A DNA stretch of 64,000 nucleotides from a virus (IMGVR_UViG_3300031800_000001:1-64000); one strand, 5' to 3'; positions 6,479 to 31,256 are shown, numbered from the stretch's first letter. Notes: generated by a model from the sequence alone, not told the origin. Translations and numbers: made by a program.

Positions 6479-6970
6479 ATGAAAAAAGCAAAAATGTTAT
6501 CAGCAGACGGTAGCGAGTTTACCGTGTTTTACCTAGAGCAAGAAAACCCTCACAAGATTGTAGATGATGCAGGGGTTGACATAGATACTGGCAAATATGT
6601 TGCTGGAGGCTTTTGCGTGGACGAGCAGGAAGACAATCCTTTCGGGCTGGACAAGACTTTCGCGGCCTTGGGGGGATGGCCGAAGGTATCTGATTTAGAC
6701 GCCCCAGCGTTTTCTGGCCCGACAGGGCCGAAAGGTCACACAGGCTGGAAAGGTGAGCAGGAGGCTTACGCTGGCGAAGTGATATTACCAGAGGACATGG
6801 TAATGGGCAGACTCTACAAGGTCGAAGGAATAGACATTGTTGCTAGATTCATGGGCGAATACAATGATTTACTTTTCGCCGTGAAACATCACGACACATG
6901 GTTTTACATTCCAATGGACGCGAAAGTACGCAAAATAGGAAAGAGTGAGGTTGACGAGTATTTAAGCTAA
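6479..6970 (+). CDS. hypothetical protein with short collagen-like G-X-Y stretch
   Basis: GPTGPKGHTGWKGEQ. Confidence 0.6.
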   Translation: MKKAKMLSADGSEFTVFYLEQENPHKIVDDAGVDIDTGKYVAGGFCVDEQEDNPFGLDKTFAALGGWPKVSDLDAPAFSGPTGPKGHTGWKGEQEAYAGEVILPEDMVMGRLYKVEGIDIVARFMGEYNDLLFAVKHHDTWFYIPMDAKVRKIGKSEVDEYLS

Positions 6971-6973
6971 TTT

Positions 6974-7043
6974 GTTTGCGGAATAGAGGCGTGAGAGAAC
7001 CGCGCACAGGACTATACTTCATCCTTTCATTAACACCGCGAAC
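6974..7043 (+). ncRNA. unknown three-way-junction RNA motif, copy 1 (5' of guaC)
   Basis: P1-GGAATAGA-P2(loop AGAGAAC)-CA-P3-TTAACACC-P1; same architecture at 13398 and 13476. Confidence 0.75.
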
Positions 7044-7063
7044 TATTTTTTAATTTTTATTAA

Positions 7064-8218
7064 GTGAGGATAGAGAACGACATAAAGCTAGACTACAAGG
7101 ATGTCCTTATGCGCCCAAAGCGTTCTACGCTAGAGTCCCGCAAGGATGTTGACTTGATGCGTGAGTTTATTTTTCCTCATGCTGGGGGGAAGGGTGCTGA
7201 CCCTAAAGCCTATGGATGGAAAGGTGTTCCCATCGTAGCTTCAAATATGGATACGGTTGGAACTTTTGAGATGGCTAAAAAACTTGCCGAATACCGTATG
7301 CTTACTTGCATCAGCAAGCACAATGATATAAAAAGATGGCTACACAAGCTGAATGGTTATGGAGTCTATAAAAACCAAGAGCAAAAAGACGGCACGGTTT
7401 GGGAGCATGACCCAAACTCAAAGTGTTCGCACAATAGAATTTATGAGCATATTTCTCCTTCTATTGGTATTAAGTATGACCCAGAAAAGGCCGATGATAT
7501 AGATTATCTCAATAACATTACATGGAACTTTTATCACACACGTTTCGTGTGTATTGATGCGGCAAATGGATACACAGCAAGATTCTGTGACTTCATAAAA
7601 AGAGTTAGAGAAGAACACCCAGCACTCATTATAATAGCTGGGAATGTTGTCACGGGAGAGATGACAGAACAGTTAATTCTAAATGGAGCAGATATTGTCA
7701 AGGTTGGTGTTGGAAGTGGTTCTGTTTGCACTACTCGCATTCAGACTGGTGTTGGTTATCCCCAATTTAGCGCGGTGGTCGAGTGTGCCGATGCCGCTCA
7801 TGGCGTTGGCGGGTATATTATGGCTGATGGCGGTTGTACCTGTGCTGGAGACGTTGCCAAGGCTTTTGGTGGAGGTGCTGATTTTGTCATGCTTGGCGGG
7901 ATGCTGGCTGGACATACGGAGTGCGAAGGACAGGAGGAAGAAATAGGAGGCATCAAATACAAAACCTTCTACGGTATGAGTTCCAAGGATGCTATGGAAA
8001 AACACAGCGGCGGCGTAGCCAAATATAGGAGCGCGGAGGGCAAAACGGTGAGGGTCAAGCACAGGGGGCTTGTTAAAAACACGTTAGAGAGCATCCTCGG
8101 CGGCTTACGGTCTGCCTGTACCTATATTGGAGCGAGAAGGCTAAAGGATATGCCCAAGTGCGCTACTTTTGTGAGAGTAACGCAGCAGTCGAATGAGATT
8201 TACGGAAAGAATACATGA
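7064..8218 (+). CDS. guaC: GMP reductase
   Basis: [69 protein letters not shown]. Confidence 0.95.
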
Positions 8219-8433
8219 GGGAGCTTTTTGAGTTAAAGGATAAATACTGGATTTCATGTTCCCCATTGGCTCGCGCTAAAAATGAGTGTTGGGTAGTATC
8301 TGTTTACAAAAAGCAGAAAGTCTCTTGGATAACGCAGGAGTGTAATAGTTTCCCCACACCAGAACAGGCTTACAAATGGGGCTTTGATAAAATTAAACAA
8401 ATAAATGCCAAATATGACAATAAAAGTAGATAA
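8215..8433 (+). CDS. hypothetical protein
   Basis: ATGA overlap with guaC. Confidence 0.5.
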
Positions 8434-8593
8434 CTCACTAGAAAAATCAGTCAAGGAAATACTGTCGGAGTACGAGGACGCCCAAATAAACCTCGCGTCA
8501 GACTTTACGCAGACTCTATTAGCGAAAAAGATTTGCAATAAGATTCGTGAACGCTATCATGTCTTTAGAATCAATGAACTGGAGAAAAAATGA
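8414..8593 (+). CDS. hypothetical protein
   Basis: ORF in overlapping chain. Confidence 0.45.
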   Translation: MTIKVDNSLEKSVKEILSEYEDAQINLASDFTQTLLAKKICNKIRERYHVFRINELEKK

Positions 8594-8817
8594 CCGCACT
8601 CGACTTTGATAAGCCAGAAATAAGGGTCAAGCTCATTTACAAGGCTTGCAAATACTTTACAGTAAAGGCGCACACACGCGAGGAAGCGCACAAGGCGGCG
8701 TATAATTCCTTTATGGATATGGCACAAAACAACATTTTTGATGGGTCAGAAATAGAGGACTTTTTTATTGAGACAAGTATCGACGGGCCAGATGGGGGAG
8801 ATATGCTACATGGATGA
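8590..8817 (+). CDS. hypothetical protein (V.A...EEA small phage family)
   Basis: FTVKAHTREEAHKAA; GGAG SD. Confidence 0.55.
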   Translation: MTALDFDKPEIRVKLIYKACKYFTVKAHTREEAHKAAYNSFMDMAQNNIFDGSEIEDFFIETSIDGPDGGDMLHG

Positions 8818-9027
8818 TGAAATAAAATACAACGCCCCCCAACACACCGGAAAGTGGGAAGATGGTGAATATGAGGCTTTCCTTCAGAGGTTTCGATGGC
8901 AACAAGAACACGGCGAGTCGCATGAAGATTACGGGGATAACAACTCTTTCCCCCGAAGGGAACACTAGCAGTTCATGCAGTTCTATTTATTAGAATTTAG
9001 AAAACCGTAATTACGCAAAAAAAGTAG

Positions 9028-9056
9028 TTGACTCACTTTTAGAATTGGTTTATCAT
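9028..9056 (+). promoter_or_regulatory. TAGAAT-class sigma70 promoter for rIIA
   Basis: TTGACT-N6-TAGAAT-N5-TATCAT. Confidence 0.7.
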
Positions 9057-9085
9057 AGTATTTCAGTCAAACAGAAAAACCTACT

Positions 9086-11377
9086 ATGAAACAAATCGAA
9101 AGAAATCCAAAGTCGCTACAATCACACGGCATTCAAAACACCGTTAAATTCGGAATCAAGGCTTCTGGTCTTGCTCACATCTTCAACGTCTTGCGGAATC
9201 AGTTATACTCCGACAAAATTATGGCAGTTGTACGGGAATATACCTGTAATGCCGTAGATGCTCACATTGATGATGATAAGCGCGACCTCCCTATCGTAGT
9301 GTCCCTTCCCACTCGCTTGCTGCCAGAGTTCAAGGTACGCGATTTCGGCAAGGGACTTACCGATGGTGATATTCAAGATGTGTATGCGTTCTATGGTGAA
9401 TCCACCAAGCGTCAAAGCAATGAGATGATTGGTCAACTCGGACTTGGCTCCAAATCGGCTTTTGCTTACGGTGACAATTTTGTTATCAATTCCTACATCG
9501 ACGGCAAGAAGCGCATCTACAACGCCTTCATTGACCCATCGCAAATTGGTCAAATTTCCAAAATTGGTGAGGAAAACACCAGCGAAGAAAATGGTATCGA
9601 AATCATTGTGCCTGTACGCAATGACGACCACACCGAATTTGAGGAAAAGGCTCATGTTCTTTTTCGCCACTTCCCCGTTAAGCCCACAGTAAAAGGCGCA
9701 GACAGCAGAAAGTTTGAGTACGAGAACCCAAATGTTATCTTCTCTGGCGACAACTGGAAGTGGATTGAGGTCAAAGACCAACGTAATTACCGTAGTAATT
9801 CCGATGGAGCTATTGTTGTGATGGGAAACATTGGTTATCCCGTCGATGAGTATGCCCTTAATCTTTCCCATGAGGATGGGCTTGCCCCCCTCTTGAAAGA
9901 GAACCTCATTATGAATGTTCCGATTGGTGACTTGGAGATTTCCGCATCACGCGAAAAACTTCAATACACCGACTACACACGCCAAAACTTGGTTCGCCAC
10001 TTGAAAGCGGTGAAGGATGGACTCGTAGAAAGCGTGAGCAAGGACTTTAAGCAATGCGGGACTTTGTTTGACGCGAAATGCCTTTTTGGTAGCGTGTTTG
10101 ATTACGCAAGCCCCCTTTACTCATTGAGGAACATCCTAGCGAAGAAGTTGCTTTGGAATGGTAAACAAGTGGATAGCGACAGTTATAGTGTGCCTAGTGC
10201 TACTTGGCCTAAAACGGAATCAGACCAAAGCGTGTACCTTCACGCCTTCAACAAAAATTATCGGAGCAGTAAGTTTAGATGCGAGGAATCAAACAGCATC
10301 AGTTGTACGAAAGGGACGGTGGTTATTGAGAATGATATTGGGCATCGTCGCGGCATCATGGGGCGCATATTACCCCTGCTTCTCGACGAAGGCAAAAAGC
10401 CCTTTATCATCCAATTTCCTAACGCAAAAGTGAAAGCGGCATGGGTAAAAAAGGTGAGTTGGGACGGCAAAATGACCCTGCTATCAAAACTGGAAAAGCA
10501 TAAGTTGAGCGAGTTTGAGGGCTATTCCCCTGTCCGAAATCCCGATGGTAGTGGAGCGGCGAAGGACGTTAAGCATTCCGCGAAATGCTTCACCTACAAC
10601 TATGATGTGGGAGATAAAATCAATCGTTGGAGCAGAGCAAAGTCTCAATACTGGAACATTGCCGAAGCAGACATGGATGCTGGCGGGGTCTATATTCTCA
10701 TCGACAAGTTCATGGTCAGAGGCTTGAAAGGCTACGACCAAGAACCAAAGCGAATGAGCAGTCTCAAGGATTCCTGCAAAGAAGCGGGGATTGTTTTTCC
10801 AACTGTTTACGCCTTCAAGGTCGGACAGAGGAACAAGGTCGAAGGTAAAAGCCAATGGACTACCCTTTGGGATTACATGAAAAAGCAGTTGAAACTGCAC
10901 ATGGAAACCACAGACCTTACGCAAAGGTTCCTTGACCGTACTGCCGCTCTTGAGTTCGTTAATACTCGCAGGAACGACAGACTCGAAAATCTGAACCACT
11001 TGTCTACTTTCCTCACCACAAAGCAGCAATGGAACAGTCTTGATAATAAGCTCGCAGACAAGGATGGCACTTTTGCCAAGTTCGCAGATGCGTTGGCCTT
11101 TATGCACGGTTGTGTGGAAGATACGAAAGGAGTAGACGTTGTGCGCGGTTTGGCGAAGGATTTCGGTCTGACGAAAGACTTTGAAAGCCCGAAGGCTCAA
11201 AAGACTACCCACAATCTGCTTGCCTTGGGCAAAAAGCTGATGGATAAGTACCCGATGATTGCTTGGTTAGATTATCAGCACTTATGCGGTTGGAAAAGCG
11301 GGGAGAAAAAGTTCCTCACGGACATCGCCAACTACATTAACGTGATAGACATTTGTAGCAGTTCTCCCGCTGAATAG
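9086..11377 (+). CDS. rIIA: RIIA-like protein (N-terminal GHKL ATPase)
   Basis: LYSDKI.AVVREYTCNAVDAH, VRDFGKGL, STK..SN..IGQLGLGSKSAFAY, SREKL; rIIB-like gene downstream. Confidence 0.85.
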   Translation: MKQIERNPKSLQSHGIQNTVKFGIKASGLAHIFNVLRNQLYSDKIMAVVREYTCNAVDAHIDDDKRDLPIVVSLPTRLLPEFKVRDFGKGLTDGDIQDVYAFYGESTKRQSNEMIGQLGLGSKSAFAYGDNFVINSYIDGKKRIYNAFIDPSQIGQISKIGEENTSEENGIEIIVPVRNDDHTEFEEKAHVLFRHFPVKPTVKGADSRKFEYENPNVIFSGDNWKWIEVKDQRNYRSNSDGAIVVMGNIGYPVDEYALNLSHEDGLAPLLKENLIMNVPIGDLEISASREKLQYTDYTRQNLVRHLKAVKDGLVESVSKDFKQCGTLFDAKCLFGSVFDYASPLYSLRNILAKKLLWNGKQVDSDSYSVPSATWPKTESDQSVYLHAFNKNYRSSKFRCEESNSISCTKGTVVIENDIGHRRGIMGRILPLLLDEGKKPFIIQFPNAKVKAAWVKKVSWDGKMTLLSKLEKHKLSEFEGYSPVRNPDGSGAAKDVKHSAKCFTYNYDVGDKINRWSRAKSQYWNIAEADMDAGGVYILIDKFMVRGLKGYDQEPKRMSSLKDSCKEAGIVFPTVYAFKVGQRNKVEGKSQWTTLWDYMKKQLKLHMETTDLTQRFLDRTAALEFVNTRRNDRLENLNHLSTFLTTKQQWNSLDNKLADKDGTFAKFADALAFMHGCVEDTKGVDVVRGLAKDFGLTKDFESPKAQKTTHNLLALGKKLMDKYPMIAWLDYQHLCGWKSGEKKFLTDIANYINVIDICSSSPAE

Positions 11378-11392
11378 TAGGCAGCGGGTTTC

Positions 11393-11438
11393 ACAGCGGC
11401 GGTTTTCCTCAAGTTGAGGGAGCCGCCGTTCTTTTGTT
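11393..11438 (+). terminator. intrinsic terminator
   Basis: GCGGCGGTTTTCCTCAA/TTGAGGGGAGCCGCCGT hairpin followed by TCTTTT. Confidence 0.7.
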
Positions 11439-11661
11439 GCGTATTTCAATTTATTAAAAAATAAAAAACTTGTTGACTTTCTACTTATAGAGGCTAGAAT
11501 ATAGTAGATGCACAATGCCAAAACATTTGGAGAGATTGAAGTCGGAAGCGTCTTTAGGCTAGACGGGAAGAACTGGCAGAAGGTCAGCGAGGTTTCCGCT
11601 AGAGACTTGAACCCGCCTCCCCCTATGCAAATTGAGCCAGAAACGCTAGTAGAGACACTTT

Positions 11662-11889
11662 ATGAGCATCAAAACGAAGCATAAGCAGCGCAAGGTTAAG
11701 CTATACAGCAAGGACATCATTGACGATATGCGTGAGCGTCTTTGCAAGGCTGAATCGGAAGGCGTATTAAGTAAGAAGAATAAACTTGTCCACAAGATTC
11801 TATGGGAGGGTTGTCACGGCTGGAAGAACATCCATGATGCTATTGTCATTACGCAATACGAGGAAGTCTATGGCGAATATAAAAAGTAA
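11662..11889 (+). CDS. hypothetical protein, paralog of 779..964
   Basis: DMRERL...LWEGCHGWKN. Confidence 0.65.
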   Translation: MSIKTKHKQRKVKLYSKDIIDDMRERLCKAESEGVLSKKNKLVHKILWEGCHGWKNIHDAIVITQYEEVYGEYKK

Positions 11890-11925
11890 TTTATCCTTTT
11901 TCTCTTACGAGAAAAATTTCTTAAA

Positions 11926-12174
11926 ATGGTAGACCCACAAACAATCAAAAAAGTGCAAAATTTTCCCAATGATGAAAAAACAGCAAAACTGTATGTTTAT
12001 GAAAAATTGGTAGAACATTTGGAGACACAGCGGGAGCAGTCCACCGACCCCGAATATCGGGGCGGGAAGGGCAACAAGCGTGATGCTCGCCGCGAGCTTT
12101 TCCGCTTACAGGTTGCGTTACGCACCATCAATTCTCATTTGAGTGATGCGAAAGACTTTTTGCAAAAAAAGTGA
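11926..12174 (+). CDS. hypothetical protein
   Basis: 82-aa ORF. Confidence 0.55.
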   Translation: MVDPQTIKKVQNFPNDEKTAKLYVYEKLVEHLETQREQSTDPEYRGGKGNKRDARRELFRLQVALRTINSHLSDAKDFLQKK

Positions 12175-12183
12175 CGAATATGC

Positions 12184-12212
12184 TTGCATGGAAGTTAGAA
12201 TTCCATTAAACT
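12184..12212 (+). promoter_or_regulatory. TAGAAT-class sigma70 promoter for rIIB
   Basis: TTGCAT-N6-TAGAAT-N5-TAAACT. Confidence 0.65.
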
Positions 12213-12250
12213 AGGGATAGTCAGTTAAACAAAGCTAACAGAAAGAAAAA

Positions 12251-13105
12251 ATGATACCCTATATACTCACAGACAACTCACTCACCGTAGTAATCGAAGG
12301 CAAGGCACACACGATGGCGAATACCCATCCAGCGTTCCTCCAAGCTCAAGAAGCATTGAAAGATGAAAATTGGGATAAGCTCAAGAATATGTTTGATGTA
12401 AGCAAGGCAGTCGGAGAATTTTTCGACAATGATGCTAACATCGAAGTCAAGGACGGAGCGGTTCACTACAATGGCGAAATTGTCCACAACCTTGTGGTTG
12501 ACAAGATTCTCGACTTCATGCGGAAGAATCTACCGTACCAACCTCTTGTTAAGTTCCTTGGCAAGTTGATGGAAAACCCCTCGCATCGCGCCGTGGACGA
12601 ACTCTACTCGTTTTTGGAGCATAAGAATATGCCCCTGACCCCCGAAGGCAATTTCCTCGCCTATAAGGGAGTGAACTCGGACTTCACCGACTTCTACTCC
12701 GGTAAGTTCTCCAATAAGGTTGGAGAGGTTCTTGAGATGCGTCGAAATGGCGTGTGTGATGACCTCAACAAAGGTTGTTCCTCTGGTTTCCACGCTGGAA
12801 GCTACGATTACGCCAAAGGCTATGCCTCTGGCGGGGGGCATCTGTTGGTGGTCGAGATTGACCCTTCTGACGTTGTGAGCGTTCCGCTTTGTAGCGATTG
12901 TCAGAAATTGCGTACAAGCAAGTATAAGGTCGTTGCGGTGTACGAAACCATTGAAGCTCCCGCCTTGGATGAGGCTCTTTACGAGTCCTACGATGATGAG
13001 GAAGCCGATGAGGTTGGGCGCGACGAGTACAACGAAGGTTGGTTCGCTGGCTACCAAAAAGCCAAACAGGACATAGTAGACAGTATGGACGACCCAAGTG
13101 TGTAG
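12251..13105 (+). CDS. rIIB: RIIB-like protein
   Basis: L..NPS.RAV.ELY.FL, GNFLAYKGV, M.RN.V.DD....CSSGFHAGS..YA, DP.DVVSVP. Confidence 0.9.
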   Translation: MIPYILTDNSLTVVIEGKAHTMANTHPAFLQAQEALKDENWDKLKNMFDVSKAVGEFFDNDANIEVKDGAVHYNGEIVHNLVVDKILDFMRKNLPYQPLVKFLGKLMENPSHRAVDELYSFLEHKNMPLTPEGNFLAYKGVNSDFTDFYSGKFSNKVGEVLEMRRNGVCDDLNKGCSSGFHAGSYDYAKGYASGGGHLLVVEIDPSDVVSVPLCSDCQKLRTSKYKVVAVYETIEAPALDEALYESYDDEEADEVGRDEYNEGWFAGYQKAKQDIVDSMDDPSV

Positions 13106-13107
13106 GT

Positions 13108-13138
13108 AAACCCCCCCGATTCATTTCGGGGGGTTTTT
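13108..13138 (+). terminator. intrinsic terminator
   Basis: AAACCCCCCCGA...TCGGGGGGTTTTT. Confidence 0.75.
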
Positions 13139-13159
13139 AGATTTAACTATTTATTGAAA

Positions 13160-13390
13160 ATGACTAACAAACAAGTAATGCAAAACATAGTCGAGCTTGC
13201 TGCAAGGCAGCGGGACGAAGGCGATAGTGGTCAGGAGTTTGTTGCTACCTCCATGTTCGCCATTGCAAGCGTGTGTGCCACAAGCGATTTCCCACAGGAG
13301 GAAGTCCAGAGCCTCGCGGCAAAAGCGATTGAACAGGGATACCAAAGGCCCGATGTGGGCGCGTGTGATGTCGATAAGGGTTTGGAATAA
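13160..13390 (+). CDS. hypothetical protein
   Basis: ORF between terminator and RNA motif. Confidence 0.5.
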   Translation: MTNKQVMQNIVELAARQRDEGDSGQEFVATSMFAIASVCATSDFPQEEVQSLAAKAIEQGYQRPDVGACDVDKGLE

Positions 13391-13397
13391 TGAATTT

Positions 13398-13464
13398 TTC
13401 GCGGAATAGAATCGTAAGAGAGCTACGGTCAAGGCAAATGTCTGCCTGTATTGAACACCGCGAA
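13398..13464 (+). ncRNA. unknown three-way-junction RNA motif, copy 2
   Basis: TTCGC-GGAATAGA-ATCGTA(AGAGAGC)TACGGT-CA-AGGCA/TGCCT-TTGAACACC-GCGAA. Confidence 0.75.
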
Positions 13465-13475
13465 TTTACTTTGGC

Positions 13476-13552
13476 GTATTTACGGAATAGAGCCAAGAGA
13501 GAGTCTTGGACAGCCTTTAGATGTGTTGTGGCGAGTTGAACACCGTGGATAC
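13476..13552 (+). ncRNA. unknown three-way-junction RNA motif, copy 3 (tandem with copy 2)
   Basis: GTATTTAC-GGAATAGA-CCAAG(AGAGAGT)CTTGG-CA-GCC/GGC-TTGAACACC-GTGGATAC. Confidence 0.75.
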
Positions 13553-14259
13553 CCCTTCTTTTACATATATCTTTGCGGCTCTTTCTATTCTCTTTTCATT
13601 TATGTTGTGTTTATTTGGTATAGAGAACAATGAATTTAGAAAAAGCCCCTTTTACTATGCTTTTATTAAGGTTACAGGGGGAGAGAGTATAAAGAATAGA
13701 GTGTTAAAGTGTTTTGAAAATGAGTTGAAATGGAGTGCCTCATATTTATATTTATTAAAATTTAATCAATTTAGCTTCCCATTTACAATCTATACAACAT
13801 ATAACACAATACAAAGAGATATACACAATGCAAAAAATTAAAATGATAGGAGAAATTACATGGACGATATTGGTTACATTATTATACTTATGCTTGGTTG
13901 CAGCTTTGGCTTTACTTTGTTTAATCTTTTCAAAGAATAACATTTATAGTAGAAAAAAAGTCCCAGCATTTTGAGCCATAAATAAGTGGCACGACGAGCA
14001 TAATTATATTAAAAGTCAAGAAAAAAGTCCCAATAATTTGAAATTAAAAATATATAAAAAAAGTCCCGATTTTTCAATGATGCAAATAAGCCACGCGACT
14101 CCGTTTTCCTATGATAAAAACCCATTTTTGAGTGATTTTTGTGCTTTTTTGTATAATAATAAAGATTTTATTCCTATTAGATGAATTTTCATTTATTAAA
14201 AATTAGAAAATGGCTTTTTTTTCGTTTTTATTGCTATAAAAATGTAATTATTATATGAT

Positions 14260-14451
14260 ATGAATACCAATATGGCCCAAAGATACGAGCAAGCATGGCA
14301 TAAAGTCTATTATGAGTCGCCGCGCTGGATGCAAGCAGCAGTTATTGACGATCCGACAGGTAGACTCGCCTCTGCCCTCGCGCAGGAGGCTGTGCTGGTT
14401 GCGGAGATAGACAACAAGCCCATAACGACAGGTATATTAAGCAATGATTGA
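14260..14451 (+). CDS. hypothetical protein
   Basis: ORF after AT-rich tract. Confidence 0.5.
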   Translation: MNTNMAQRYEQAWHKVYYESPRWMQAAVIDDPTGRLASALAQEAVLVAEIDNKPITTGILSND

Positions 14452-14605
14452 AAAAGATAGTGTTTATTGGTCTATACATAAAATTGTATTTGAGGAGATG
14501 TATGATGATTTAGATGATAGTATTAAATCTATTATACGAAACAAACCACAAAGCCGCGAGGGCGGGTTACTTAATGAAAAAATTGATTTAGAGGTGCGAA
14601 AGAGA

Positions 14606-14634
14606 TTGACTCAAGGTTAGAATTCCTGTACTAT
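14606..14634 (+). promoter_or_regulatory. TAGAAT-class promoter, probably leaderless transcript
   Basis: TTGACT-N6-TAGAAT-N5-TACTAT, ATG 5 nt later. Confidence 0.7.
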
Positions 14635-14639
14635 TAGGT

Positions 14640-14882
14640 ATGGCAAGAGGAAAAGTCAAAGGTGCAACAAGTTTCGTCCTAGTATCTCTGGACGACTTAA
14701 ATCATGTTCTGCGTCCAGCCGCTATGGTGATGTGCAGTCGCAAATTTGCTGACACGCTACATCTCAAAAGCAAGAGGGTTGAGGCGGGGTATGATACCTA
14801 CGCATTCGTCAACAACCAAGTAGGCGTTGTGAAGGACATGGAAATGAGTGCCATCCCAGAGGAAAAAGCCCTTGACTTTTAG
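14640..14882 (+). CDS. hypothetical protein
   Basis: ORF directly after promoter. Confidence 0.65.
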   Translation: MARGKVKGATSFVLVSLDDLNHVLRPAAMVMCSRKFADTLHLKSKRVEAGYDTYAFVNNQVGVVKDMEMSAIPEEKALDF

Positions 14883-14914
14883 TTAGAATCGGGCTAAAAT
14901 TACATATACTACAA

Positions 14915-15865
14915 ATGACTACTGATACAGAATACTTTCCTACGGTTGTGGGACAAGAACGGGCCAAGCGTAAGTTATCTTATTTTTTAGATAATTGGAA
15001 AAGCTCTGGCGTACTCCCAAACACAATGTTCGTCGCGCCTCGCGGGTGTGGCAAAACCATGCTGGCTACGCTTCTCGCGGCGACCATGAAAGAACACGCG
15101 CCGCGCAAGATAGGTCGTGTGGTGAACTGTGCGTCCATCAAGAACCTTAACCAGTTCATCAACGGGACGATTATCCCCTATATCCAGAACAAGGACTGTA
15201 CTCTCCTGTTGGACGAGGCATCCGAACTCCCCCGCGATGTGGAGATGGCACTACTGACCATCCTTAATCCCAATCCAGAGAACCGCAACACTTTTTCGTA
15301 TGAGGACTATACGATTGACTTTGATTTCACGCGCCAGACCTTTCTGCTCGCTACCACCGAAGCACACAAGGTTTTCCATGCTCTCATGGATAGGCTTGAC
15401 CGTGTGGATTTAGAGGAATACAAGAATCATCATCTTGGGGAGATTATTCGGCGCAATCTTGTTAATGCTGAATTTGACGCTGGCGTATTGGATGAAATTT
15501 CCACCGTGCTGCGTAGCAATGCGCGTCAAGCACAACGCATGGCAAACAACATTCGTAATCTTCTCACCAAAAAGAAATCCAAAAAATTCACAAGAAAGGA
15601 TTGGGAGCGGATGAAACACCACCTTGGCATCCGTCCTTTGGGCTTAAACGAAAACGAGATTCTGTGTCTCCGTGCCTTGTCAGAGAAGAAGGCGTCGAGC
15701 CTCACTTGCATCAGCGCGAAGTTGGGTATGTCAAAAGAGGTAATTCAACGCGACATTGAATTGTATCTCCAAAAAATGAATCTAATGGAAATCAGCACCG
15801 ATGGTCGTAGTTGTACTGCATTCGGACTGAAGTATTTAATGCGCCATGTTGAAGATTGCGAATGA
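14915..15865 (+). CDS. RuvB-like AAA+ ATPase (Holliday junction helicase-like)
   Basis: VGQE..K, Walker A APRGCGKT, Walker B LLLDEA, LATTE, DRL, C-terminal winged-helix-like region; no RuvA seen in window. Confidence 0.8.
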   Translation: MTTDTEYFPTVVGQERAKRKLSYFLDNWKSSGVLPNTMFVAPRGCGKTMLATLLAATMKEHAPRKIGRVVNCASIKNLNQFINGTIIPYIQNKDCTLLLDEASELPRDVEMALLTILNPNPENRNTFSYEDYTIDFDFTRQTFLLATTEAHKVFHALMDRLDRVDLEEYKNHHLGEIIRRNLVNAEFDAGVLDEISTVLRSNARQAQRMANNIRNLLTKKKSKKFTRKDWERMKHHLGIRPLGLNENEILCLRALSEKKASSLTCISAKLGMSKEVIQRDIELYLQKMNLMEISTDGRSCTAFGLKYLMRHVEDCE

Positions 15866-30828: not shown

Positions 30829-31256
30829 GGGGGCGTACTGGTTTCGATTTGAAGCTTTACGCCAGATTGCAAGTAGAGGATGACGGTTGGCCTCTTAAAA
30901 AAACTGTCAAAAACATATATGCCAATGATGACATTGACATGGAGATGGCCCTTTCTGTAGACGAGGCTGACGAGATTCTCGCCAAGTTCGGATACGTTGA
31001 GGAGGAAGCCCTCTTGCTGGCAGTTTAAACCTGCCCCGTCCTACTCTGGATGCTCGTTAAAGAGCTAGGGCGTCGACAGCGAGCAAAAAACTGGACAGAT
31101 GAAGGGAGCCAGTATAAATAATCTCTTCATAAGTTCGCACAGGTCGGTTAGTCAAGTGACCCACCAACGCGAGTAAGAAATAATACTTGACTAAGCTTGT
31201 AGTATATCTGTCTGACGGTTTTGAAGACGTGGGTTCGACTCCCACCGCCTCCACCA
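30829..31256 (+). ncRNA. ssrA: tmRNA
   Basis: 5' GGGGGCG-TACTGGTTTCGA; 3' GTGGGTTCGACTCCCAC-CGCCTCC-ACCA with G3:U70; tag ORF 30921-31028 ANDD...LLLAV*. Confidence 0.95.

Follow-up and report, generated by a model that had tools for sequence, protein, structure and literature searches.

A previously uncatalogued three-way-junction RNA domain family in uncultured phages

Does a structured RNA that lies just upstream of a phage GMP reductase gene belong to that gene, or does it stand for something else? The question is raised by a 64,000-nt stretch of viral DNA (IMGVR_UViG_3300031800_000001, positions 1–64,000; hereafter the window), which opens a 116-kb IMG/VR virus record and in which a short motif occurs three times. 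An original prediction described the three sites as copies of a three-way-junction RNA, with constant unpaired bases and covarying stems, and regarded the first copy as a possible nucleotide-sensing leader of GMP reductase and the other two as a possible ribozyme or sponge RNA. The three sites are members of a previously uncatalogued RNA domain family, whose fold is deeply conserved around an invariant core and is selected on the sense strand.

Results

Three copies of the motif in the window

The copies lie exactly where they had been placed, all on the + strand. Each has a closing helix (P1), two further helices (P2 and P3) and conserved junction strands (J1/2, ACA and J3/1); bit scores refer to the covariance model R1, described in the following section.

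6974–7043, + strand: motif copy 1, from sequence, minimum-energy fold and model R1 (60.9 bits, E = 1.5e-13)
6974–6981/7036–7043: P1 of copy 1
6982–6988: J1/2 of copy 1 (AAUAGAG)
6989–6993/7001–7005: P2 of copy 1, with loop AGAGAAC at 6994–7000
7006–7008: ACA of copy 1
7008–7011/7022–7025: P3 of copy 1
7026–7035: J3/1 of copy 1 (UUCAUUAACA)
13398–13464, + strand: motif copy 2, first of a tandem pair (R1 68.5 bits, E = 1.5e-15)
13398–13404/13458–13464: P1 of copy 2
13411–13416/13424–13429: P2 of copy 2, with loop AGAGAGC at 13417–13423
13432–13436/13443–13447: P3 of copy 2
13448–13457: J3/1 of copy 2 (GUAUUGAACA)
13476–13552, + strand: motif copy 3, second of the tandem pair, 11 nt 3' of copy 2 (R1 65.1 bits, E = 1.2e-14)
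13476–13485/13543–13552: P1 of copy 3
13486–13492: J1/2 of copy 3
13493–13497/13505–13509: P2 of copy 3, with loop AGAGAGU at 13498–13504
13510–13512: ACA of copy 3
13513–13515/13530–13532: P3 of copy 3
13533–13542: J3/1 of copy 3

When aligned, the three copies have the blocks GGAAUAGA, AGAGA, CA and U(K)AACACC in common, and the intervening sequences differ yet stay complementary. Minimum-energy folding of single copies yielded P1, P2 and P3 for copies 1 and 2, and P1 and P2 for copy 3. The pattern GGAATAGA-N30-60-GAACACC matched twice in the window against 0.00 expected (100 shuffles), and R1, run on the entire 116-kb record, returned exactly three matches, copies 1–3 (60.9–68.5 bits).

An invariant core within covarying helices

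A pattern scan of IMG/VR gave at least 119 loci, about half of which were chance matches without pairing; in the remainder, the P1 and P2 helices are of unrelated sequence. When 38 of the latter were aligned by MAFFT without structural guidance, RNAalifold recovered the three-way junction, and the same alignment was used to build R1. All three helices covary, with compensatory double changes at 14 of 16 pairs. Paired cells amount to 93.7%, compared with 59.9% in shuffles and 36–41% when the partners are slid by 1–3 columns; the covariation score is 0.878, compared with 0.211 in shuffles and at most 0.142 with partners slid by 1–3 columns, and none of 500 shuffles reached the observed score. 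R1 identified at least 65 true copies among the pattern-scan loci. The covariation of stems around constant unpaired bases, proposed from the three copies only, is thus confirmed by the alignment of relatives and the covariance model, and with it the proposal of a conserved structured RNA.

Because the pattern forces some bases to be invariant, additional members were gathered by synteny with a CobT-like protein (see below). In total, 86 distinct motif sequences from IMG/VR phage contigs define the consensus P1-(R-G)AAUAGAG-P2 (5 bp), loop R-GAGA-R-Y, ACR, variable P3, N-Y-A-K-U-(K)-AACA(C-Y), P1'. The domain is 65–95 nt long, with a P1 of usually 7–14 bp, a P2 of 5 bp and a P3 that is a variable hairpin whose loop ranges from 6 to 40 nt without constant sequence; about 20 junction and loop bases are invariant across the family. 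In the synteny-gathered members, the P2 loop begins with A or G and there are rare changes at the two A's of J1/2; apart from these and the switch in P1 described next, the rest of the core is fixed.

The larger sample also refines how the conserved bases are to be read. GGAATAGA and AACACC, originally taken as unpaired, are indeed constant, but their GG and CC form the two innermost P1 pairs: the outer of these is G-C in 57 sequences, A-U in 29 and no other combination in any of the 86. The CA linker is conserved, although its proper extent is A-C-R, with the C invariant in 86 of 86 sequences. Likewise, the 7-nt P2 loop AGAGA(A/G)(C/T) is present, but its first and last bases behave like a pair (A-C 35, A-U 27, G-C 24, G-U 0; n = 86), leaving what is effectively a GAGAR pentaloop. 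Finally, T(T/G)AACACC is found, except that its K can be missing, as it is in copy 1.

Within the stems, G-U pairs outnumber A-C pairs by 57 to 10, and the sense strand is therefore the folding strand, as expected for an RNA. A GC-rich phage (L324:3509–3727) carries three tandem copies; ACR has lost its A in the first of these, and AACAC is replaced by AACAAAG in the second. More divergent members therefore exist than the strict pattern catches.

Near-exclusive occurrence of the family in uncultured phages

That the motif is not a named family, as had been supposed, agrees with searches against Rfam 15 (4,227 models). At gathering thresholds, the window gave only a transfer-messenger RNA (tmRNA) and two tRNAs; both motif regions, searched with E values up to 10, gave only chance matches of 10–15 bits, and 17 further motif-bearing loci gave tRNAs only. 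There were no matches to the purine riboswitch (RF00167) in the searches of the window and motif regions, nor to the int-alpA RNA (RF02996) in the 116-kb record with E values up to 10. Neither the region nor a typical motif had a true match by BLAST among 50,697 phage records, and tblastn of the CobT-like neighbour protein against the same records returned no match at all. R1 found no copies in T4, the Pelagibacter phages HTVC010P and HTVC008M, the Puniceispirillum phage HMO-2011 or Roseophage SIO1. A full-text literature search for the core strings produced nothing relevant, in a comparison that excludes 10,006 viral RNA candidates (Fremin et al. 2023, PMC10690425).

In prokaryote genomes, a stricter pattern was run over GTDB (185,579 species, one genome each). 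It gave nine matches, by our estimate approximately the number expected by chance; the single true copy among them is on a 28-kb contig of a Verrucomicrobia metagenome-assembled genome. The family is confined almost wholly to uncultured phages, with at least 65 copies in IMG/VR versus one in GTDB. DNA of the window itself was found in sequencing runs from seawater and marine metagenomes only, with no RNA run among those listed.

Varied genomic contexts

The motif is intergenic throughout and has the same orientation as the flanking genes in nearly every context. Its neighbours encode GMP reductase (window and L122), large terminase (L052), an SMC/SbcC-like protein (L083), a ParB-methylase (L009), an HNH endonuclease after a helicase (L019), an N-terminal DNA polymerase A fragment (L023), a T7-like RNA polymerase (L068) and many small open reading frames (ORFs) without a family match. 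Clustering of the immediate neighbours gave lineage-specific families only, and an all-against-all BLAST (1e-3; a weak test) revealed no protein family common to six motif-bearing genomes. T7-like RNA polymerase (PF00940) was undetected in five motif-bearing records searched, although L068 does encode one. The motif does not depend on adjacent genes.

Its position relative to transcription and translation signals is similarly diverse. In one locus (L110:6998–7146), only 2 nt separate the motif from the tRNA-Arg(UCU) gene that follows it, with a tRNA-Tyr about 900 nt further on, so that the motif can occupy a tRNA gene region; another copy lies between convergent genes (L076), and a third is located 21 nt before a canonical terminator that is followed by a DNA polymerase gene (L063). 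In a complete genome of 42.9 kb (G001), the motif is 8 nt upstream of a promoter-like site, and such a site also follows immediately 3' of the motif in L107 and L117; over all contexts, promoter-like sites just downstream are not significantly enriched (3 of 81 versus about 2.8 expected). About 15 contexts have an ATG 7–12 nt 3' of P1 without a Shine–Dalgarno sequence, although the window phage lacks such sequences at most of its genes anyway. In many contexts a co-oriented upstream gene has its stop codon 3–33 nt before P1, and several copies lie where a transcription unit ends.

Immediately 3' of P1 come 8 nt in which pyrimidines are abundant and G is scarce (6–7%). Each of the three window copies has six U in these 8 nt, and at least five U are present in 16 of 78 distinct contexts, copy 1 and L143/L146 among them; once the CobT-like group is set aside, U accounts for 43% of the first eight tail bases in the remaining 34 contexts, against a background of 28%, and G for 7%. 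Pairing of a CUAUU tail with J1/2 would be available in 6 of 52 contexts, which is not significant, and is topologically impossible while P1 is formed. In one locus (L075:6660–6830, minus strand), the motif caps a roughly 30-bp outer helix (AGAGUGCACC...GGGUGCACUCU), with UUUUUAUU coming next, and the whole resembles a long terminator hairpin with the junction at its tip.

Copy number is low: a single copy in G001, G002, G003 and G004, compared with two in G005 and three in the window record. Small phage genomes have one copy and larger ones two or three, sometimes in tandem; tandem arrays (pairs or a triple) are present in the window, L323 and L324. A scan for circularly permuted forms found only tandem arrays and chance matches.

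A larger structured region beside a CobT-like gene

One such context is a group of phages encoding a CobT-like protein of 490 aa, with a vWA domain and a HExxH-like motif, that is 45–50% identical among phages. The RNA motif lies about 65–70 nt after this gene in 72 of the 75 loci encoding the protein. A second, different three-way junction is located about 65 nt upstream of the motif (L154–L214; for example, L153:3901–3965) and consists of an outer helix and two hairpins, one with a GCAA tetraloop and the other with a conserved UUCCUUUCC loop; compensatory changes are present at 17 of its 18 pairs. This UUCCUUUCC loop resembles an anti-Shine–Dalgarno sequence.

In a phage of the ~40-kb class (L176:3926–4720), both junction domains lie inside a noncoding gap of about 795 nt, in which the approximately 640 nt 3' of the motif have no convincing ORF or Rfam match. 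This gap may be a large multi-domain RNA. Given the second junction and the ORF-poor sequence beside it, the motif can be a domain of a larger noncoding RNA. Downstream, related members have recurring boxes similar to GACGAAGC and GCGAGGAA.

Copy 1 is a neighbour, not a conserved leader, of GMP reductase

Copy 1 lies between two genes of the same strand.

6479–6970, + strand: 163-aa gene without a family match, with its stop 3 nt before P1 of copy 1
7064–8218, + strand: GMP reductase gene (guaC), GTG start (Pfam IMPDH/GMP reductase, 5.5e-72)

Its placement 20 nt upstream of guaC is as originally stated, and the U/A-rich spacer has no Shine–Dalgarno sequence. A guanine-nucleotide or (p)ppGpp riboswitch controlling GMP reductase is nonetheless highly improbable. 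In its favour are this spacing and the persistence of the arrangement in one related contig (L122/L241). However, when 80 phage loci with guaC homologues (44–92% identity) were scanned with R1, including 1.5 kb of flank each, only one had the motif: L241, on the same contig as L122. The 79 loci without it include relatives of 83–92% identity. In seven such close relatives, similarity to the window starts at the guaC start codon, and the sequence upstream is different in each and unrelated to that of the window; only L241 keeps the window's upstream region. Copy 1 is therefore a neighbour, not a conserved leader, of guaC. All other family members are beside unrelated genes and there is no match to a purine-riboswitch model, so that the riboswitch was rejected as a candidate and the suggested nucleotide-sensing leader does not stand. 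An appealing annotation is thereby corrected.

The junction at position 7064 between the window and L238–L244 is a sharp mosaic boundary at the guaC start codon. The arrangement of the 163-aa gene and the motif is common to only one related contig, and a search with the 163-aa protein found a single relative, too few to judge whether gene and motif travel together.

Other features of the window

The tandem pair lies just past the rII-like genes, whose surroundings are as follows.

9086–11377: rIIA-like gene
12251–13105: rIIB-like gene
13112–13139: strong intrinsic terminator (8-bp stem with 7 G-C, then a T run)
13160–13390, + strand: 76-aa ORF without a family match, which follows the terminator and ends 7 nt before copy 2

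No obvious promoter is seen between the rII terminator and the 76-aa ORF with the tandem motifs. After the tandem motifs comes an AT-rich, ORF-poor stretch of about 1.1 kb (13553–14640), with promoter-like sites nearby, in which AAAAAGTCCC occurs three times within 113 nt (13955–14067) compared with 0.32 expected in the whole window. The phage-encoded tmRNA at 30829–31256 (147.6 bits) contains about 75 nt of extra sequence that breaks the model alignment, after the part that aligns to the tag-coding region. Most genes of the window have no Shine–Dalgarno sequence, and several sigma-70-like promoters (TTGACT ... TAGAAT ... -10 element) end 4–14 nt before an ATG (for example, 14606–14642 and 14872–14917). 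This promoter–ATG spacing suggests that window mRNAs are leaderless or have very short leaders.

Discussion

An RNA with about 20 invariant bases that keeps a fixed place while the adjacent protein has diverged to 45% identity almost certainly has a specific role, and the same RNA is common to phages of quite different gene content. As no phage partner is apparent, its function would reside either with the RNA itself or with a conserved component of the host. Its varied positions, within operons, at operon ends and beside a tRNA, argue against a leader of the next gene and favour action on its own transcript or in trans. In addition, stems that vary freely around a junction that does not are typical of ribozymes and aptamers, and exceed what either a roadblock hairpin or a terminator requires.

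The explanation that we lean towards, tentatively and at somewhat less than an even chance, is a module for transcript processing, punctuation or 3' ends. Carried inside polycistronic phage transcripts or at their ends, the motif would be an autonomous module that acts on the transcript of which it is part, marking or processing the RNA at gene or operon junctions. It might do so by cutting itself; alternatively, a conserved host RNA-processing enzyme might recognize the motif or be blocked by it. Hammerhead, twister, pistol and hatchet ribozymes have invariant junction bases and covarying stems, and are spread over phage contigs without regard to neighbours. By analogy, the most specific guess within the processing explanation is a new class of small self-cleaving ribozyme, which we consider somewhat unlikely. 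A new functional RNA class with its own chemistry or ligand, be it a ribozyme or an aptamer that senses or soaks up an infection signal, seems possible, if doubtful; as an aptamer, it could respond to, for example, a nucleotide second messenger in many unrelated marine and freshwater phages.

Several observations weigh against transcript processing. In sequence, the core has nothing in common with any known ribozyme class. The P1 helix, in many cases long and stable (10–14 bp, and about 30 bp in L075), would hold the products together if the RNA were cut inside the junction. A translational operator would account just as well for the ATG that about 15 contexts have 7–12 nt after P1, and the 3' tail, pyrimidine-rich and G-poor, contains enough U in 16 of 78 contexts to suggest termination. 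Moreover, an exonuclease block needs only a simple hairpin, and a purely protective role leaves the conserved core unexplained.

Among the alternatives, a conditional attenuator, either riboswitch-like or binding host RNA polymerase or another host factor, is unlikely on present evidence. Here, a small molecule or host factor bound by the junction would set how well P1 forms, and thereby either read-through into distal genes, with P1 and the U-rich tail serving as a terminator, or the access of ribosomes to a start codon 7–12 nt downstream. In its size, in the three-way junction closed by P1 and in the invariance of its junction bases, the motif looks like known aptamers, glycine and glutamine riboswitches offer precedents for tandem aptamers, and the absence of a phage protein partner fits a host factor or ligand; the nearby ATGs, the order of motif, canonical terminator and DNA polymerase gene in the L063 group and the U-rich tails (copy 1 and L143/L146 included) fit as well. 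However, the downstream genes share nothing, one copy adjoins a tRNA gene (L110), the L076 copy between convergent genes has no downstream gene at all, and the G001 motif is upstream, not downstream, of the next promoter-like site. P1, at mostly 10–14 bp, is too stable for a switching helix, and no alternative pairing or anti-terminator is seen, the complementarity between CUAUU tail and junction not being significant.

Such indifference to context, together with the confinement to phages, would suit a stand-alone small RNA that, once freed from the transcript, serves in trans as a sponge or decoy to capture a conserved host protein or a defence signal. Tandem arrays, with two or three diverged copies in the window, L323 and L324, would raise its dose; RNase P processing of the adjoining tRNA 5' end in L110 would be expected to free the 3' end of the motif, and in the CobT-like group the motif is a domain of a larger structured noncoding region. 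Yet we regard a sponge as quite unlikely: most genomes have a single copy without its own promoter or terminator, stoichiometric action would demand very high expression, there is no known target, and the conserved bases are in the junction rather than in exposed repeated loops as in decoys of the CsrB/6S type. More improbable still is a purely structural 3' stabilizer that stops 3'-to-5' exonucleases, or a non-canonical terminator, at the end of the upstream cistron. The co-oriented stop codons 3–33 nt before P1, the contexts at operon ends, the pyrimidine- and U-rich tail and the tandem copies, which recall the paired exonuclease-resistant RNAs (xrRNAs) of flaviviruses, are all consistent with it. 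Against this, about 20 invariant bases far exceed what a roadblock hairpin or terminator needs, there is a single copy per genome despite the many operon ends of a phage, a terminator-like U-tract is present in only about 20% of tails, and essential genes begin 7–12 nt downstream in many phages.

Conserved-core junction RNAs of such size have repeatedly proved to be ribozymes or riboswitches, and the compactness of this family (65–95 nt) and its many natural variants for mutant design make it easily testable in vitro. Even if the motif proved to be a processing or termination signal, it would show how uncultured phages without Shine–Dalgarno sites organize polycistronic messages.

Comparison with known RNAs

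The motif shares with small ribozymes (hammerhead, twister-sister, pistol and hatchet; 50–90 nt) covarying helices around some 15–20 invariant bases, an intergenic, sense-strand and neighbour-blind distribution with one to a few copies per phage genome, and occasional tandem copies or adjacency to tRNA genes. It differs from them in having no match to any Rfam ribozyme, with E values up to 10, and an often very long P1. Its junction strands of 7 and 3 nt echo the lengths found in the hammerhead. However, CUGANGA and GAAA are absent from the motif, whose junctions are instead AAUAGAG, ACR and N-Y-A-K-U-K-AACA; its J3/1 is 9–10 nt long, compared with 1 nt in the hammerhead, and there are no matches to the Rfam hammerhead models.

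Among aptamers, the glutamine riboswitch glnA (RF01739) is marine, phage-borne and sometimes tandem. Like the purine (RF00167) and glnA aptamers, the motif is a P1-closed three-stem junction of approximately 60–70 nt with conserved junction bases, which can sit just upstream of a start codon and occurs in tandem. By contrast with both, it has neither a model match nor a consistent set of regulated genes, and some copies are beside a tRNA gene or at the end of an operon. Its variable P3 loop leaves no place for the loop–loop lock of the purine riboswitch, from which its junction bases also differ.

More distant parallels concern placement or general architecture. The put RNA of HK022 (putL/putR), an RNA-only processive antiterminator, is phage-specific, approximately 70 nt long and present in one or two copies per genome, as is the motif; it acts in cis without a phage protein, and put-like action would explain the order of motif, terminator and essential gene in L063. 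Such placement before a terminator is present in the L063 group but absent in G001 and L076. In contrast to the closed three-way junction of the motif, put consists of two stem-loops, with no sequence similarity, and it lies just downstream of promoters, whereas the G001 motif is just upstream of a promoter-like site. Flavivirus xrRNA is a three-way junction of about 70 nt with a conserved core, often in tandem diverged copies in the 3' untranslated region; however, it derives from eukaryotic RNA viruses and blocks 5'-to-3' exonuclease, and its pseudoknot ring is unseen in the motif, so that the likeness is one of analogy only. The int-alpA RNA (RF02996) is, similarly, a small conserved junction RNA of phage intergenic regions, but has no match in the 116-kb record. 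Possible local likenesses would be to T-loops or the AG bulge of the T-box, to the sarcin–ricin loop and to loop B of the hairpin ribozyme.

The motif defines a new RNA family, of a general kind that is already familiar, and falls outside every known family for which membership could be tested. In its way of working, its nearest analogues would be the small ribozymes found in phage metagenomes or three-way-junction aptamers.

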